Shown here in pieces: positions 1 to 47,051 of a DNA stretch of 64,000 bases. The stretch is from the NCBI GenBank assembly GCA_000004985.1, contig GG738876.1; one strand, written 5' to 3'. This DNA is from Naegleria gruberi. Its lineage: Eukaryota. The notes below the pieces were generated by a model. The model ran no database searches. It saw nothing but the letters and a program-made list of their open reading frames with translations, and was not told where the DNA came from. The translations under genes were made by a program, and so were the position numbers. The stretch's first letter is position 1, and every line of letters starts with the position of its first letter.

Positions 1-2796
1 AAACTTTCCAGTTCCAGCTATTGTTCGAATTATACCACTATTATCAACTAATCTTATTCGATTCGTATTCGATTCGGATATTACCAGTTCATTATTGGAT
101 GTTTTAACCATTTTAGCTGGATAAACATTAGCATTATAAACACTCATTCCATCACCAATTCCTCCAACTGGGGTTAACAATAGAGTGTCCAACTTTCGTA
201 TATTATTATTCTCTGTAAAGAAGAAACTTCCATCACTTACTATTGAGCAAACACCAAATGGAAATCCAATAGTATTGCCATCATCATTAGAAACCTTTGA
301 ATAAATGAATCCAGTCCGTGAAACAAAACGAATCCTATTATTATACGAATCTGCAATTAAAAAACCATTGGAATGAACTGTTATCGATGTTGGATTGAAT
401 AATTTGGCTGTTTTAGCCGTAATTCCATCTCCATTATATCCTGCCACAGTTGTCCCAGCCAAAGTACTAATTGTTCCTTCAGGAATCAAAAAACCTTGAG
501 AATCTTGTTTCACATTTTGATATTTCACCTGGAGAATTCGATGATTTGATGAATCTATATGAAAAAAAATTGAACAAATTAGAATTGAATGAGACTTGAA
601 TGAAATAACATACCAGCAATGTAAATATCATAAAAAAAGAATCCATTTCGTATAACTTCAATTCCAGAAGGTGAATTGAGCTCTGTTTGTCTTGGATTAT
701 TTTCCACAATGGTAGAACCTGACGAACCCAATCCAACAAGTGTAGAAACTGTGGATGCATTGGTGTAGGGCACAATTCTAACTCTATGATTAAGGGTATC
801 AGATATCAAGATTCCAATTCTTTTACTTGTAGCATACTGTGGAGAATTCAAATGAGTATTAAGGGGATGAAGAGAATCTCCATTGAATCCAGCAATTCCA
901 GTTCCTACTATAGTGTTGATTATTCCATCTTTCGTAATTTTTCTAATTCTATGATTTCCAGTATCTGCTATCAATAGAAAATCATCAGATTTATCATAGT
1001 AAACAGAATAGGGTCTATTTAATTGAGCATGGATTGCTAAATTACCATCTCCTCCATAACCTGGCTCTCCTGTTCCAGCTACCAATTGAACCTGCAAAGT
1101 AGATGGATTATATTCTAATATTCTATGATTATCAGTGTCTGTTTGACATTTTTGAATTGCAAGGAACACATGTGAAAGACTTACCTGCAATGTATATTTG
1201 AGTAAAATCTGTAGAGCAGTGAATACCCATTGGATTATTAAGAATGATTCTGGAAGCATTCGTATTGGCGAATAGTCTGTCAGAAGTTATGGAACCTGCA
1301 TACATGCAATTGTTTCCGTTGGTATTTAACGAAAATTGTTGTAAATTAAACTTTAGTCCCACATTGCTTGCCACGAGGAGTTTTTCATTATTAAGAATTA
1401 GACCACTTGGGTTTTCTATTGTGGAAATTACATTTGTGGAGGCACCAGGAACAGTACATGATTCGTTCGAAATCTTATTAGAAAGTGAATATTTCACAAC
1501 TTGGTTTGTATCAATATTCAATACATTAATTTTCAATTTCTTGGTCAAATCATCTGCAATGTACAATAATCTACTTGTTTCATTGAGAGTCATTGCAGAA
1601 ATTGAATTAAATCTCATAAATTTTCCATCAATAAAATCAGAAAAAGATCCATATTCACAATCGTATAAACGAGTGAGCTCTCCACTCACCAAATCCACTC
1701 TACCAATCATACAAATGTCATTCACATAATTTCCAGAGAATAAATTAACATCAGTACTGACATACTGAGCCAAATTCACAAATGATGAAATAATTCCATC
1801 CTTAATTTTCAACAATTGACTGCCAAGTGAAACCAAAATCGTTCCATCACTTGTTACTGAAATTCCAGCTGCATCATTCAAGGAAGCATTAATTGCTAGT
1901 CCATTCACTTGATACTGAGTTCCTCCCTTAAATTCTCTTCCACTAATAACTGTCAACCAACCACTTTTCATTTCAATTTTAAAAGTGGAAAATGAATCAA
2001 TCACAAAAAGGTAATTCTCCATTCCAACAATTTTCTTTGGACTACTCAAAACTGTTTCATTGGCAAAACCATCTAATTTAGTTTGAGTTACTAAACCATC
2101 ACTACCAGCAAATGTTGAAATTATTCCATCCAAGCCAATTCTTCTAATTCTATAATCTGTATAATCACAAACAAAGACAATTCCATTTTGGTCAACCCAC
2201 AAGGAATTAATCGAAAGAAACCTAGCTTTCGTAGCTAATCCTCCATCCCCTCTCTCTAATGCTCCAAAATATCCTGCAAAAACACTGACTAATCCATCAT
2301 TGTCAATTTTAATAATTTGCTTGAATCCAGAAACATAAATCGTCTTGTTTCCACTTGTCAAATCTTCCAAAACATAAAAATAGGAAAGTGGGTAGTAGAG
2401 ATTGGTTGCTTTGGTATCGTTTTTCTTCTCCAGACTGTCTGCAGTATCACACCTTTCGAATACAGAATCCTCACATCCCATGAGTGTAATAATTTCTCCA
2501 GTTTTCTGATTAAATTGAATGATTTTTACTGCAGTAGCAATGTAGAGGATAGCAGAGTTGATGAGAGACTGTTGACCTGAGCTGAAACTGTAATTATATT
2601 TGGGGCCACCTGCAATTATTTCTTGTTTAAATTCTAATGGAGCTTCTTCCGAGTTTCGAATAATGAAGAGTAGACAAGAAAACAGTAGAAGCAGTACTGC
2701 CATCGATGGCAGCTTTGTGTGTTTCCTACAGAAGCCGGATAAACATTTGAGCATATTTTTTCTTTTAAGCAAAGATATTCTTCTGTTGTCGGACAT
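1..2796 (-). CDS. NHL-repeat protein with N-terminal signal peptide/TM. The gene is 3'-partial and continues off the left edge. Exons are 2796(or ATG 2703)..1185, 1138..614 and 554..<1.
   Basis: Repeated 'DTxNHRI(R/L)' NHL motifs occur in the minus-strand ORFs 1132..2796 and 579..1259. An unlisted frame stays open from 554 to position 1 ('...TNRIRLVDNSGIIRTIAGTGKF'). Introns fit at 1184..1139 (GTAAGT...CAG, 46 nt) and 613..555 (GTATGT...TAG, 59 nt). Both are phase 1 and both fall right after 'IYIAG|D', which restores the NHL motif. The hydrophobic 'MAVLLLLFSCLLFII' looks like a signal peptide. Confidence 0.6.
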
Positions 2797-2936
2797 TTCT
2801 TTTAATTGGTCACTGTCGCCAAATATTCTGAAAACGGAACTAAAATAATTTCCAAAACCTTAAGGTTATGGAATTAATTAAAAAATTACATGTAATTAGT
2901 TTTAATTTGCTATCATTTTATTTACAAGTTCTTAAA

Positions 2937-4867
2937 TTAGTCGATATCCACATCTTCAAACTTTGGTTGAGCTGTGCTCGAAGTAGTTGGTCCACTGCCA
3001 CTAGAAGGGCCATAACCTCCTGGTGTTTGTTGTTGTTGAGCTTCTCCTTGATATAATTTGGTGATAATTGGAGCACATTTGTTTTCCAAATCCTTCTTTC
3101 TTCTTTCAATTTCGTCCTTTGAGGCCATGTTATTATTGTCAATCCAATTCATTGCTTCTTCACAGGCCTTCTTGATGACATTCTTGTCAGATTCTGAGAG
3201 TTTACCAGATAGATTTGGATCTTCTGTTGTTGATTTCATTTGGTAGGCGTAGGATTCGAATTGATTCTTGGAATCAATCTTTTCTCTCATTTCCTTATCT
3301 TCTTGTTCCATGTCTTTGGCCTTTCTCAACATTTCTTCAATTTCCTCCTTACTGAGACGACCCTTCTCATTGGTAATTGTAATGTTTTGAGTTTTACCAG
3401 ATGAAGTGTCCTTTGCTCCAACTTTCATGATACCATTAGAGTCAATTTCAAAGAAAACTTCAATCTTTGGTACGCCTCTTGGTGCAGGTGGAATTCCTTC
3501 CAAATTGAATTTACCCAACAAGTGATTATCCTTTGTTAATGTTCTCTCACCTTCAAAAACTTGAATAGTGACAGCTGTTTGATTATCAGAGTAGGTGGTA
3601 AACATTTCTGATTTCTTACATGGAATAGTTGTATTTCTCTCAATCAATTTAGCCATTACACCACCAGCAGTTTCAATACCCAAACTCAAAGGAGTCACAT
3701 CAATCAAAAGTACCTTAGTTTCCTTACCAGTCAAAACACCAGCTTGAACAGCAGCACCATAAGCAACAGCTTCATCAGGATTGATGGACTTACAGAGCTC
3801 CTTACCATTGAAGAATTCCTTAAGCATTTCTTGAACCTTTGGAATACGAGTTGAACCACCGACCAAGACAACATCATCAATTTGTGCCTTGTCCAAACCA
3901 GAATCTTGGAGAACCTTCTTAACTGGTTCGAAACAATTTCTGAACATATCCATATTCAATTGTTCGAATTTGGCTCTAGTCATTGGAATGTCCAAGTCAA
4001 TTCCATCAACAATTGAATCAACATTGATAGTTGAAGTGGAGGCAGATGACAAGTTTCTCTTTGTTCTTTCACAAGCAGTTCTCAATCTTCTCAAAGCTCT
4101 TGGATTATCATGAACGTCTCTTCTATACTTTCTCTTGAATTCTGTACAGCAGTATTCCACCATTCTTGAATCGAAATCTTCACCACCCAAGTGAGTATCA
4201 CCAGCAGTAGCTTTCACCTCAAAAACACCATCTTCAATATTTAGGATTGATACATCAAATGTACCACCACCCAAATCGAAAATCAAAACATACTTCTCAT
4301 CCTTCTTATTTAACCCATAGGCAATTGCAGCAGCTGTTGGTTCATTGATAATTCTCAAAACTTCTAGACCTGCAATTTGACCTGCATCCTTAGTGGCTTG
4401 TCTTTGAGAATCGTTAAAGTAAGCTGGAACAGTGACAACTGCCTTTTGGACCTTCTTTCCAACGTATTGTTCTGCAATATCTTTCATTTTGGTCAAGACC
4501 ATGGATGAGATTTGTTCTGGTGTGAAAATATGAGATTCTCCCTTGTACTCAACTGAATATATGGTTTATCATCTCCTTTGGTAATTACTTTGAAAGGCCA
4601 ATGCTTAATATCATTCTGAACACTTGTATCACTGAATTTTCTACCAATCAGACGTTTAGCATCAAACACTGTATTATGAGGATTCATTGCAACTTGATTT
4701 TTGGCAGCATCACCAATCAAACGTTCATCATCGGTGAATGCAACATAGGAGGGTGTAGTTCTATTACCTTGATCATTGGGTATAATCTCTACATTATCTC
4801 CCATATAAACACCAACACATGAATAAGTAGTACCCAAGTCAATTCCAATTGCTCCGTCAAATGACAT
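2937..4867 (-). CDS. Cytosolic Hsp70 (SSA/HSPA8-type), intronless. A single-nucleotide deletion near 4552/4553 splits the reading frame, so this is either a pseudogene or a sequencing indel.
   Basis: The N-terminal ORF 4493..4867 ('[20 protein letters not shown]...KPYIQ') and the C-terminal ORF 2937..4502 ('...[12 protein letters not shown]...[11 protein letters not shown]...PKFEDVDID') are the two halves of one Hsp70. The minus strand reads 'att cag ttg agt aca agg', where Hsp70 expects 'att cag Gtt gag tac aag' ([27 protein letters not shown]). The second frame encodes the expected sequence exactly. The frameshift alone already gives the stop at 4493..4495, and the shifted frame encodes a perfect Hsp70 continuation. 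Confidence 0.9.
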
Positions 4868-4954
4868 TTTGTTTCAATTTTTTTGATCTTTAAATTGCAA
4901 CCACCTTAACATTGTGTGAATATTTAAAGAAAAGAGCCAAAACTATTGTTAGAT

Positions 4955-4980
4955 TTCGGAATTAAGCTTTTGATTCCGAA
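4955..4980. promoter_or_regulatory. Palindrome TTCGGAAT-N10-ATTCCGAA about 90-110 bp upstream of the hsp70 ATG. It is a candidate stress or transcription-factor site and only loosely resembles a heat-shock element (HSE).
   Basis: A perfect 8-bp inverted repeat contains GAA/TTC units and lies in the hsp70 5' flank. A two-unit nTTCnnGAAn also occurs at ~5203..5214. Neither has three contiguous units. Confidence 0.25.
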
Positions 4981-5283
4981 CTTTAAATTCCTCAACCAGC
5001 AACCCTATTCTTTCCAATTATAGAAAATTTCTTTTTCTATTATTCATAAGATAATTTCATTCCGATTGTTCAACCTCAATAAGCATCTTTTTCATTCCGA
5101 TGCCATCACAGCAATATGCACCTTGATGAAAATCATCAAAACAATTTTCTTCGTTCCCTTTCAAATAACAAATCAATTTGAAATCTATCAAAGGTGTCTT
5201 CCATTTTCTTGAATGTGTTGCCTTTCTATTTTTATCATTTCCCTCCTTTTCGAAAAACCAATTTGAAAAAAAACGTCAACACA

Positions 5284-5724
5284 ATGCCTCCTTCCAGTTC
5301 ACCTTCGACCAATCAGCACCCTCAGAAAGTTCTTGCATTGCAAGAATTGGATACAACAACAAACTCTGTTTCATCTTCTTCTTCGGGTGGTGTAAAGACG
5401 AGTGGTAGTAGCACTCCTACAACATCAAATAATAAGAATACATCAACATCCGATCAAAAAGTTCCAACACCATCCAAAAAGAATGCAAAGCAACAACAGC
5501 CTCCACAACCTGCCTCCAAAAAGACTATTTCCCTCAAAACTAAAATTGCATTCAGGTTTGGTACGTTTAGCAAGGTACCAATCTTGTCGAGTATTGTCAG
5601 ATCAAATCCTGTACTTGTCAAACTTATCAATCCAAAGACATACAATAGAATCAAGATCAAGACTATTAGAAAGGATAACAAGACTATTATTGTTATCAGT
5701 AAGAGAAAGTTATTCAAGCCTTAA
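5284..5724 (+). CDS. Hypothetical Ser/Thr/Lys-rich small protein. The start is uncertain; the track ORF begins at 5194.
   Basis: ORF 5194..5724 has an internal ATG at 5284 ('MPPSSSPSTNQ...'). It is low-complexity and has a basic C-terminus. I find no recognisable domain. Its stop overlaps the stop of the convergent gene by 4 nt. Confidence 0.3.
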   Translation: MPPSSSPSTNQHPQKVLALQELDTTTNSVSSSSSGGVKTSGSSTPTTSNNKNTSTSDQKVPTPSKKNAKQQQPPQPASKKTISLKTKIAFRFGTFSKVPILSSIVRSNPVLVKLINPKTYNRIKIKTIRKDNKTIIVISKRKLFKP

Positions 5725-6815
5725 GTATCCACTGTAATTCTTTTCAAATGAGGAAAGTTGTTAATAAGGCTCTTCTTCACTTCGAATAGAATATCATTAT
5801 GACTAATATCGAGTGTTGTCAAGTTTGATAATTTGAATAGAGGCATTGGAAGTTTGATATTCCAATCCAATTCATTGCATCTAATATTTAGAAAGGTTAA
5901 ATTGCCAAGATTATTACTATTGGCAATATGTTTCAGTGAATCATTTCCAATAGAATTATATTCCAAATGTAAATTCCTCAAATTACTCATTAACTTGCTA
6001 TCCACAATTGACTTGACTCCATTTGAACCAATATTATTATGACTCAAATCCAGAAAAGTCAATCCATTAAGAATTTTAGCTTCTGAAATGAATTTGGCAC
6101 CTTTACAATCAATTCTATTGCAAGATAAATTGAGATGAGTTATGTGAGATAATTTTCCATCCACAAGATATTTGAGACCCTCACTCTCAATATGATTATA
6201 CTTTAGCAGAAGGGTCTGAACAGAGACAAGTCCATCACTGCTCATCAGAGCTTTCATTCCCTCAATTCCCAACATGTTATGATTCAAATCCAAATACGTG
6301 AGTTTATCAAATGATCCTCCAGATAATAATTTTGCACCCTTCTCCTCAATTTGATTTCCACCCAATTTCAAACTATTTAATTGTTTTGCCAATCGACTCA
6401 TACTAATACTCTCAATAATATTGTCATCAATTTTCTCAAAATACAACCGATAGAAATCTGATAAATTCAATTCATTCAAACTGTCCCAAGTATCGTTATC
6501 ATCATCATTCCGAAATATTTCCATCAATTGTTTGTTTACTTCTTCGGGTTGATTTTTAGAGAAGAAACACAGCTTTTCAATATATTTAAATTTCCCCAAT
6601 TTACAACATGAAACAAAAGATTCCAAATCATCATCACATGATACAATACTCGTTCTTGTCCGCATTACTAACTGATTCCAATATTTGCAAACCAAAGATA
6701 AGCTTGCAAATAATTCCTTCCCATCCAAATATCGGAATATATGAATAGTAAATAATTCAGAGGGCAAGTGATGTATCGTTGAGAGTTGTTGATCGTAATG
6801 AATGAAAACTACCAT
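5721..6815 (-). CDS. F-box-like / RNI-type leucine-rich-repeat protein.
   Basis: ATG at 6815. The N-terminal 'LPSELFTIHIFRYLDGKELFASLSLVCKYWNQLV' is F-box-like. Repeated 'L..LDLS.N.IG..G.K.L' LRR units follow (NLRC/RNI-like). The ORF is continuous at 364 aa. Confidence 0.6.
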   Translation of the reverse strand: MVVFIHYDQQLSTIHHLPSELFTIHIFRYLDGKELFASLSLVCKYWNQLVMRTRTSIVSCDDDLESFVSCCKLGKFKYIEKLCFFSKNQPEEVNKQLMEIFRNDDDNDTWDSLNELNLSDFYRLYFEKIDDNIIESISMSRLAKQLNSLKLGGNQIEEKGAKLLSGGSFDKLTYLDLNHNMLGIEGMKALMSSDGLVSVQTLLLKYNHIESEGLKYLVDGKLSHITHLNLSCNRIDCKGAKFISEAKILNGLTFLDLSHNNIGSNGVKSIVDSKLMSNLRNLHLEYNSIGNDSLKHIANSNNLGNLTFLNIRCNELDWNIKLPMPLFKLSNLTTLDISHNDILFEVKKSLINNFPHLKRITVDT

Positions 6816-20679: not shown

Positions 20680-21702
20680 ATGTTTAGAAACTTCCGTCGT
20701 TATGCCTCATCATCATCGGCATCATTTAATGCTCGTTTAAATCCAGCTGGTCACAAAATGTTGAATAATAGTGTCAGAACCTTCTCTGGTACTGCTTCCA
20801 GCTCTACTTTTTCTCCGCTTGTTAAAACTCTTGTTACTGGTGGTTTATTGATTGGTACTGGTTACCTTCTCAACAAGACTATGAATGAACCTACACAAGC
20901 TATCGGAAGATATGGTAATACATCAGAATTGGCCCAACAAAGACTTGTTCAACCAGACATGGCTAGAACTGGTTTGAATCCAATTGTTCAACAATACATG
21001 AGTGGTACTTACAAATATGTTGCCTTGAACGTTGCTCTTACAACTCTCTTTGCTGTTGGTGCTTACAAATCTGGCTTAGTTTTTAGAATTTTGAATATGA
21101 ATCCATGGATGCATTTGCTCGTCTTTGGTGGTGGTATGATTGGAACAAACATGATCACTAGATCTCTCGATATTAATACTAATAGTGCATTGAAGCATAC
21201 CATGTTGACTGCCTTCAACGGAATTGTTGGTTTGTCACTCTGTTATGTTGGTTTAATGTATAGACCAGAAATTATCATGAGAGCTGCTCTCTACACTGCT
21301 GGTATCTTTGGTGCCTTGTCCTATGTTGCTATCAATGCTGAACAAGACAAGTTCCTTTCTATGGGTGGTCCATTGTTGGCTGGTTTGGCTGTTGTCTTCT
21401 TGTCAAGCTTGGCTCCATTGGTTCTCCCAGCCACAATGACTAGAACTTTGCAAGCTACTGAAGCTATTGCTCTCTATGGTGGTTTGTTGTTGTTCGGTAT
21501 GTTCATCTTGTACGAAACCCAAAAGGTCAGAATGAAGGGTGAAAATTATAAGAATTATGTTGAATCTGAAACCATGAGAGGTACTCCAAACCACATGATC
21601 CAAAAGCCAGATTACATCAACTCTTCAATTTCTCTCTACATGGATATGGTCAACATTTTCGTTCGTTTGCTCTACATTCTCGGTGGTAACAATAGAAAGT
21701 AA
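20680..21702 (+). CDS. TMBIM-family membrane protein with an N-terminal presequence-like extension (GHITM/MICS1-like, probably mitochondrial).
   Basis: 'MFRNFRRYASSSSASFNARL' looks like a targeting peptide. It has 7 TM helices. 'LYGGLLLFGMFILYETQKV' and the C-terminal 'LYMDMVNIFVRLLYILGG' are the BI-1-like motif. It is a paralogue of the gene at 7112. Confidence 0.65.
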   Translation: MFRNFRRYASSSSASFNARLNPAGHKMLNNSVRTFSGTASSSTFSPLVKTLVTGGLLIGTGYLLNKTMNEPTQAIGRYGNTSELAQQRLVQPDMARTGLNPIVQQYMSGTYKYVALNVALTTLFAVGAYKSGLVFRILNMNPWMHLLVFGGGMIGTNMITRSLDINTNSALKHTMLTAFNGIVGLSLCYVGLMYRPEIIMRAALYTAGIFGALSYVAINAEQDKFLSMGGPLLAGLAVVFLSSLAPLVLPATMTRTLQATEAIALYGGLLLFGMFILYETQKVRMKGENYKNYVESETMRGTPNHMIQKPDYINSSISLYMDMVNIFVRLLYILGGNNRK

Positions 21703-44830: not shown

Positions 44831-46501
44831 TTATTTAGTTTGAATGACACCACTGGCAATCAACTTTTGAATCTTACCAAAAATGTCTGGGTTCTTCAAA
44901 TGCTTTTGAGCACTAGCTGGGTCAGTTTGGAAATCTCTCAATACAGTTTGCATGACTGGGTCTTGAAGAATGCCAGCAATTTCTGGATCCTTCATGGCAT
45001 TTTGAATTCTTTGTTCGTCTCTTTCACCAGAACCATGTTGAATAATATCCATGACGTGAGCAACTCCATTCTTGATTTCTTCATTGTTTGGATCAATCTT
45101 GCTGGCTTGATCATAGGTAGCAAGGGCCTTGTGATATTCCTTACAGGCAACATGGCATTGAGCCTTTCTAATGTATGCCTTGACAAAGTTTGGATCAATT
45201 TCAATAGCCTTTTCAGCGTCTTTCAAACCATAGGCAAATTCACCCAACTTGATATAACAGGCAGCTCTATTGCTGAAAATGGTGGCATCCTTTGGATTTC
45301 TCTTGGCAGCTTCATTGTATTCCTTCATGGCTTCTGGGAATCTTTTTTCCTTAAAGTGTTGATTACCAGCATTCTTATGTTGGGTGGCAATTTCCGGATT
45401 AATGTATGCTTCTTCTTCTAATTTCTTCATAATCTTTTCACATTCTTGCTTCTTCTTTATAACTTCTGGGTTTCTATGTTCAGTCAAAGATTCGGTATAA
45501 AAATGAAGAGCTTGAGTATAGTTTTGTTGTCTGAAATAAGCATTACCAATTCTGGCATATCCCTTAGCAATTTCGTTGAAATCGGCATGATTTGTCTTAC
45601 CAACTTGGATAGCTTCTTCAGCTTGTTTAATACAAGTTTCAAAATCACCTTGTTCCATATATACGGCAGCCTTATTTAAATAGAGAATCATATTTGTTGG
45701 ATCCAATGTAATAGCCTTGTCATAGTGGAACAAAGCCTTTTCGAAATCCTTCTTCTTATAATATTCGTTACCAAGATTCTTTTCAATCATGGCTGGCTGT
45801 TGATTAATTTCTTCGAGTTTCTTTTGTTCATCTTCCTTCTTTTTACGTTCCTCTTCCTTACGTCTTTGTCTTTCTTCTTCTTCCTTTCTGCCTCTATCAG
45901 CTCTTATCTTTTCTTCCATTTCAGGATTGACTTGCATCAAGAAAATAATTGTGGACATAATTCTAGGATCGGAAATGTGTTTTTGCAAATTTTCTGGACT
46001 TGCTTGAATTTCTTTCAATGCATCAACGTAATCCTTTTCTTGAAGATGTTTAGAAAGTTCAGGATGGTTTTCAATCTTTCCGAACATATTTGGATCATTG
46101 AATACTTTGAGGAATGGTAAAGCAGCGTCACTTGGTGCTTGTTGCATCAAGAGATTTTCAACTTCGGTCATCACACTCTTGATTTGTGCATTATTTGGTT
46201 CAACTCTTAATCCTTCTTGTAATGTATCCAAAGCTTCTTCATATCTTTTAAGAGCATATAAAGCTTGTCCTTTTCTCAGGAATCCTTTAGAGAATGCTGG
46301 TTGTTGTTCAACACACAAGGAAGCATCCTTCAAAGCTTGTTCAAATCTGCTCAACTTTAAATAAACAGCAGCTCTATTAGATAATAAAACGTGATGATTT
46401 GGATCAACTTGAAGACCCAAAGTATAGAGTTTGATGGCTTCTTCGTCCTTTCCTTCCTTCAAAGCTTGATTTCCTTGGTTTTTGTAGTCTTCAGCGCTCA
46501 T
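44831..46501 (-). CDS. STI1: Hsp70/Hsp90 organising protein Sti1/HOP (TPR1, DP1, TPR2A/B, DP2).
   Basis: The ATG at 46501 (MSAEDYKNQGNQALKEGKDEEAIKLY...) is in an A-run; the track ORF begins 10 codons upstream. Three TPR clusters are present. The charged linker is 'EEEERQRRKEEERKKKEDEQKK'. The C-terminal DP domain reads '...DPEIAGILQDPVMQTVLRDFQTDP...'. Confidence 0.85.
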   Translation of the reverse strand: MSAEDYKNQGNQALKEGKDEEAIKLYTLGLQVDPNHHVLLSNRAAVYLKLSRFEQALKDASLCVEQQPAFSKGFLRKGQALYALKRYEEALDTLQEGLRVEPNNAQIKSVMTEVENLLMQQAPSDAALPFLKVFNDPNMFGKIENHPELSKHLQEKDYVDALKEIQASPENLQKHISDPRIMSTIIFLMQVNPEMEEKIRADRGRKEEEERQRRKEEERKKKEDEQKKLEEINQQPAMIEKNLGNEYYKKKDFEKALFHYDKAITLDPTNMILYLNKAAVYMEQGDFETCIKQAEEAIQVGKTNHADFNEIAKGYARIGNAYFRQQNYTQALHFYTESLTEHRNPEVIKKKQECEKIMKKLEEEAYINPEIATQHKNAGNQHFKEKRFPEAMKEYNEAAKRNPKDATIFSNRAACYIKLGEFAYGLKDAEKAIEIDPNFVKAYIRKAQCHVACKEYHKALATYDQASKIDPNNEEIKNGVAHVMDIIQHGSGERDEQRIQNAMKDPEIAGILQDPVMQTVLRDFQTDPASAQKHLKNPDIFGKIQKLIASGVIQTK

Positions 46502-47051
46502 TGTTTTCCAATTTTTTTTTAATTTAATCAAATTCCGAAAGCTTTTGTTTATTTATTAGAGACGGAAGTTGATTCCTTTAGGCTGGTTCCGAAATATTTT
46601 GATCAAATAATAGATTGTTATTTTTATTAATTGAAATATTCAATTAATAATTAATTTTGTAAACATTAATTACTCTGTTAACGAACGAATTAAAGAAAAA
46701 TGTCAAAGGAAAGAGATGATCATATTGGCAATTAAACAACTCTTTTGATAATCTTCTTCCTGCATAATACAGTTAAAATTACAGAGTCTCAATTATAGTC
46801 GTGAAATGTAAAAGAGAACAGAGAGATGAAAATAACTGTTGACTACCATCACCCTCAATCATATTAATGAAGGCATTAAGCCGAACTGAAGCATTTTAAG
46901 ATCCTCCACCAATGCACAACAGTTTTATTAAAAAAACAAACTCACAATAACCCTTTTCGCAAATTTACAGTATTTCTTCTTCTTGCTTTATCAAAAAGAT
47001 TAAATTATAATTTAGAGAGGATTTTGGATTTTGTAAATCTTCACTCTGAAT

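Follow-up and report, generated by a model that had tools for sequence, protein, structure and literature searches.

The minus strand of the 64,000-nt stretch of Naegleria gruberi DNA analysed here (the window; contig GG738876.1 of assembly GCA_000004985.1) carries an intron-less cytosolic Hsp70 gene, located at 2937..4867, whose sole interruption is a 1-nt gap at codon 105/106. We infer that this missing base is probably a consensus error of the Sanger whole-genome shotgun draft and no biological lesion, which would mean that the NEG-M draft carries an ordinary, selectively maintained Hsp70 of the HSPA8/SSA type, whose record would simply be one base short at CA[A/G]-GTT. The gene-prediction pipeline made up for the gap with an invented 32-nt intron, and the model deposited as XP_002675789.1 / D2VJI1, with 11 residues of the nucleotide-binding domain (NBD) missing and two wrong, is the outcome.

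Organization of the Hsp70 locus

The gene runs from an ATG at 4865-4867 to a TAA at 2937-2939 and appears in the window as two overlapping minus-strand ORFs in different frames, 4493..4867 (124 aa) and 2937..4502 (521 aa). An earlier, sequence-only reading of the window had interpreted these ORFs as a single Hsp70 missing one base, and the ORF list, the translation and tblastn all confirm this interpretation, the base being lost at 4552-4554. Codons 1-105 (M1..Q105; 4553..4867, minus strand), in the starting frame, are identical to residues 1-105 of AAQ24867.1 (P0121). Codons 106-643 (V106..D643; 2940..4553, minus strand) follow in the -1 frame and are 100% identical to P0121, G4553 being counted twice. 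When the repaired protein is used as a tblastn query, it matches only these two Hsp70 pieces in the window, residues 106-643 in one frame at 100% identity and the N-terminal portion in a second frame.

The G of CAG is at plus position 4553 and the T that follows at plus 4552, and the minus-strand reading ATT CAG TTG AGT ACA AGG GAG given previously matches the letters of the window. Translation shows that the insertion of any single base after CAG yields one ORF of 643 codons with zero internal stops. The gapped form of the site (4552..4554, minus strand) is CAGTTGAG and the form with the extra base CA[A/G]GTTGAG, Q105-V106 being restored either by an A after 4554 or by a G after 4553. The missing base had been taken for a G, and CAG GTT does give the right protein. 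CAA GTT is however equally good, so that the window itself does not determine the base, and the nearest relative has an A. The suggestion of a homopolymer at the indel does not stand, as the gap site is a two-base run at most.

Across the whole gene, neither translation nor tblastn reveals a further stop or frameshift. The 19-residue, out-of-frame tail of the 124-aa ORF (4493..4552, minus strand) is a product of the shift and no real peptide. A 74-aa ORF lying over the 3' end of the gene (2918..3142, minus strand) had been listed as starting with ATG; it starts at TTG, in a frame that differs from that of Hsp70, and is a chance ORF without bearing on the gap.

Intact versions of the gene

The repaired 643-aa translation was found in the protein collection, where it is identical over all 643 residues to AAQ24867.1 / Q6WGI0, "heat shock protein 70 [Naegleria gruberi]". 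The two proteins are the same once the base has been restored, whereas the window DNA is one base short in codon 105/106.

An Illumina metagenome contig of 4569 bp (ENA ERZ929261 k127_504458, run ERR1078381, project PRJEB11402; hereafter L001) also encodes exactly the repaired 643-aa Hsp70, in an uninterrupted ORF. It aligns with window positions 1446..5725 at 99.2% DNA identity over 4.3 kb, with flanking genes and gene order alike, and its first 97 nt match window positions 5725..5821 at 96.9%. To judge from this alignment, L001 is from a close N. gruberi-like strain or haplotype. Its Hsp70 protein is that of the window, encoded in an intact frame with 14 synonymous differences; L001 further has 197 nt more than the window at 5725/5726, and a few indels outside coding sequence distinguish the two. 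The reading frame of Hsp70, interrupted in the window, is thus uninterrupted in both L001 and AAQ24867.1. At the gap site, L001 reads ATT CAA GTT GAG and the window ATT CA- GTT GAG. As L001 has CAA, the lost base is more likely an A than a G, the most parsimonious change being the loss of one A from CAA. The organism from which L001 originates differs from N. gruberi NEG-M by no more than about 0.8%.

The sequence-only reading had also called for a search for other SSA-type copies, and this search proved fruitful, as it returned intact N. gruberi paralogues, two at 84% identity (P0012, P0013) and one at 71% (P0033). Other searches gave no match. A DNA pattern for the gapped and the ungapped site had zero matches in the JGI metagenome contigs, where the closest sequence in a protein-guided scan was at <=82% identity. 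Neither of the split ORFs is present, by exact look-up, in a collection of 15 billion proteins, and an exact-product look-up in a collection without the reference assembly gave no match for the split ORFs, for the annotated product of the locus (P0007), or for the F-box/LRR and NHL ORFs nearby. When the frameshifted ORF of 124 aa was taken as a protein query, no match exceeded 86% identity among the matches listed, and neither an independent frameshifted tail nor N. gruberi fragments were seen. A literature search returned nothing on AAQ24867, Q6WGI0, NAEGRDRAFT_83205, XP_002675789, D2VJI1, EFC43045 or project PRJEB11402.

Selective constraint on the window copy

Over the 1932 nt of Hsp70, 14 substitutions separate the window from L001, among them those at window positions 4461, 4389, 4362, 4326 and 4314; all are synonymous, with 0 non-synonymous changes. 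This gives a dS of ~0.035 and a dN of 0 (405 synonymous and 1524 non-synonymous sites), and the chance of observing zero amino-acid change would be ~1e-3 if the window copy had been neutral since its split from L001. The neighbouring NHL-repeat gene has 6 synonymous and 2 non-synonymous differences over 450 codons. The remaining indels between the window and L001 are non-coding, plus one in-frame indel of 3 nt; the Hsp70 gap alone breaks a reading frame, and does so in the most conserved and constrained gene of the stretch.

This 14:0 pattern indicates that purifying selection has acted on the window copy practically up to the present, and that any real inactivation would be extremely recent. 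Together with the lack of a second stop or shift, it agrees with the earlier description of an otherwise lesion-free Hsp70. A long-standing pseudogene, which was considered as a candidate, is ruled out by the same pattern and by the absence of a second lesion. No relaxation of constraint is seen, and a newborn pseudogene would be the sole pseudogene option that is still possible.

The reference gene model and its 32-nt pseudo-intron

N. gruberi supplies the best protein matches to the gene. The locus is annotated as NAEGRDRAFT_83205, with a protein of 632 aa (XP_002675789.1 / UniProt D2VJI1 / EukProt EP00686_P007860). This protein (P0007) is obtained exactly when 4517..4548 (minus strand) is removed and the remainder translated. 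Such an exact match indicates that the window represents the NEG-M reference, or at least does not differ from it at this locus, and that the model has bridged the frameshift with an invented intron of 32 nt (GTACAAGGGAGAATCTCATATTTTCACACCAG). The expectation that automated annotation would mishandle the site is thereby borne out. XP_002675789.1, although derived from exactly this DNA, is a mis-model of the gene, 11 residues short and wrong at two positions: at the junction it reads ...PYIQLK followed by QISSMVL, with L106 and K107 where the gene has V and E. The 11 residues that it lacks are conserved in all paralogues and align with HSPA2 residues 108-118, which belong to NBD subdomain IB, and without them the 632-aa model probably could not fold correctly.

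The pseudo-intron has the ends GTACAA...CCAG, and thus GT..AG boundaries, and its removal restores the frame. Its content is coding, since it encodes conserved Hsp70 residues, and its length is not typical of the species.

Origin of the missing base

The sequence-only reading had left the choice between a very recent pseudogenisation and a sequencing or assembly indel, an alternative that our results support, since the gene is otherwise intact and constrained and its repaired protein is on record. A draft consensus error is favoured by the existence of this protein and of the intact, independent L001 contig, and also by the 14:0 constraint, the lack of a second lesion and the fact that the sole frame-breaking indel falls in the most conserved gene. 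Prior rates favour it as well: a draft 8x Sanger assembly (41 Mb here) is expected to contain hundreds to thousands of single-base consensus errors, and a new frameshift, fixed or in the majority, in one particular constrained gene of 1.9 kb is much rarer than these. A weak assembly stretch, which the 197-nt difference 1.2 kb away would fit, can be counted on the same side. Other observations have to be counted against an error. The L001 protein is identical despite 0.7% DNA divergence, so that the identity with AAQ24867.1 is no proof of an intact NEG-M allele; at least two intact paralogues at 84% would make a real loss of the window copy tolerable; and indel errors classically occur in long homopolymers, which this site is not. 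The base might instead have been lost through a real, very recent 1-nt deletion in NEG-M, fixed or on the one haplotype assembled, leaving a newborn pseudogene or null allele whose function is covered by other Hsp70 copies. We consider this main rival unlikely, while giving it appreciable weight: the deposited reference contains the gap and its annotated model rests on gapped sequence, intact paralogues exist, and the 197-nt deletion nearby may mean that the reference haplotype carries other real lesions. NEG-M has moreover long been kept in axenic culture, where such mutations can accumulate, and the heterozygosity mentioned for N. gruberi (PMC9928731) makes allele-specific lesions possible. 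However, with 0 non-synonymous against 14 synonymous differences and no second lesion, the deletion could have occurred only within a very small part of the time since divergence. The collections searched contain no independent frameshifted product, and the prior of such a deletion is below that of a draft-consensus error.

A real gap could also be compatible with full-length Hsp70, by a -1 ribosomal frameshift at CAG_G or by a nucleotide inserted into the transcript, and reading G4553 twice would give exactly Q-V-E-Y-K. This is very improbable, as no X XXY YYZ heptamer is found at or near the site (CCA TAT ATT CAG TTG AGT), and as the 121 nt from the site onward are less stably folded than 193 of 200 shuffles (MFE -14.7 kcal/mol; mean of the shuffles -19.6; z = +1.57). 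There is no homopolymer on which transcriptional slippage could occur, and the frame is simply continuous in L001 and in all paralogues, so that there is no conserved recoding signal. Programmed -1 frameshifting was rejected for lack of a slippery site, of a downstream structure and of the frameshift in relatives. To our knowledge, neither an unconventional -1 re-reading nor nucleotide insertion into transcripts has been described for Naegleria nuclear genes. As for the annotated model itself, it would be right if a true spliceosomal intron of 32 nt lay at 4517..4548 and the protein had 632 aa, a reading to which the GT..AG ends, the restored frame and the use of the model in RefSeq, UniProt and EukProt lend some appearance, and to which we give practically no credence. 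One frame over, this segment encodes residues identical to those of the N. gruberi and N. fowleri paralogues and of all cytosolic Hsp70s, and the matching stretch of L001 is ordinary in-frame coding sequence. Splicing would delete 11 conserved NBD residues and create L106 and K107, GTACAA makes a poor donor next to the GTAAGT of the neighbouring gene at 1184, and 32 nt is far under the mean intron length of 203 bp in N. gruberi (PMC8296547). A genuine intron at this place is thus rejected in view of the conserved coding content, the length, the donor and the in-frame sequence of L001.

Neighbouring features of the window

At the junction 5725/5726, 1.2 kb from the Hsp70 gap, 197 nt of L001 (98..294) have no counterpart in the window. 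An F-box/LRR ORF (5721..6815, minus strand) is here convergent with a plus-strand ORF (5284..5724), the stop codons of the two overlapping in the window. In L001, the LRR protein is 27 residues longer at its C-terminus and a spacer of ~116 nt is found, which is missing as a whole from the window. No obvious microhomology is found at the 5725/5726 junction. The difference could reflect either a real deletion or an assembly collapse.

On the other side of Hsp70, two NHL-repeat ORFs (1132..2796 and 579..1259, together 579..2796, minus strand) overlap in different frames. They probably constitute one gene with a short intron, for which a canonical GTAAGT donor is present at 1184 and for which several AG sites, 46-106 nt downstream of this donor, are acceptor candidates that keep the frame open. 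Further away, the window encodes a homologue of Hop/Sti1, the Hsp70-Hsp90 organising co-chaperone (44831..46531, minus strand), with multiple TPR repeats and two STI1/HOP DP domains; its linkage to Hsp70, at ~40 kb, is probably coincidental. Two ORFs of the Bax-inhibitor-1 family (PF01027; 7112..7969 and 20680..21702, plus strand) lie within 13 kb of each other.

Significance for reference data

Our results bring no novel biology, as Hsp70 is a well-known chaperone whose intact sequence is already deposited. Their practical value is the correction of a reference protein, AAQ24867.1 / Q6WGI0 having to replace XP_002675789.1 / D2VJI1 / EP00686_P007860. Such a correction is useful, since phylogenies of deep eukaryotes often rely on cytosolic Hsp70 as a marker, and it is also used in proteomics searches. 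The locus moreover provides an example of draft-genome frameshifts disguised as tiny introns, and the sample from which L001 was assembled could yield another N. gruberi-like genome with which to compare the reference. If the gap turned out to be true, a paralogue under strong constraint would have acquired a newborn null allele in a lab strain, which would be mildly interesting with regard to Hsp70 redundancy in Naegleria.

The encoded protein and its relation to other cytosolic Hsp70s

On the strength of its domains, ends and alignments, the window gene can be classified as a standard eukaryotic cytosolic Hsp70 of the HSPA8/SSA type. Pfam PF00012 is found on both P0007 and P0121. The protein is colinear with solved human HSPA2/HSPA1A over residues 5-640 (E about 1e-276), and the phmmer alignment with human HSPA2 (5fpn) extends over residues 6-628 (E = 3e-278), covering the nucleotide- and substrate-binding domains. 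Only 5 residues precede the conserved phosphate-binding motif and the protein ends with ...FEDVDID; no signal peptide, transit peptide, targeting extension or KDEL/HDEL can be read from the sequence.

No heat-shock element GAAnnTTCnnGAA (<=1 mismatch) is found in the ~450 nt upstream of the Hsp70 ATG (4868..5300). This element occurs at chance level window-wide, with 43 found and 44 expected, and is thus uninformative either way. The gene may be constitutive (Hsc70-like), or Naegleria may use a different heat-shock element.

The canonical C-terminal motif of cytosolic Hsp70s, bound by TPR co-chaperones, is EEVD. The tails of the Naegleria proteins (window 2937..2960, minus strand; P0012, P0013, P0017; N. 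gruberi and N. fowleri) read FEDVD(I/V)D, a form that is related to EEVD and not canonical. The window protein belongs with the eukaryotic cytosolic Hsp70s (human HSPA8/HSPA1A/HSPA2, yeast SSA) and is colinear over its full length with solved human HSPA2 and HSPA1A, but its C-terminus is EDVDID instead of EEVD.
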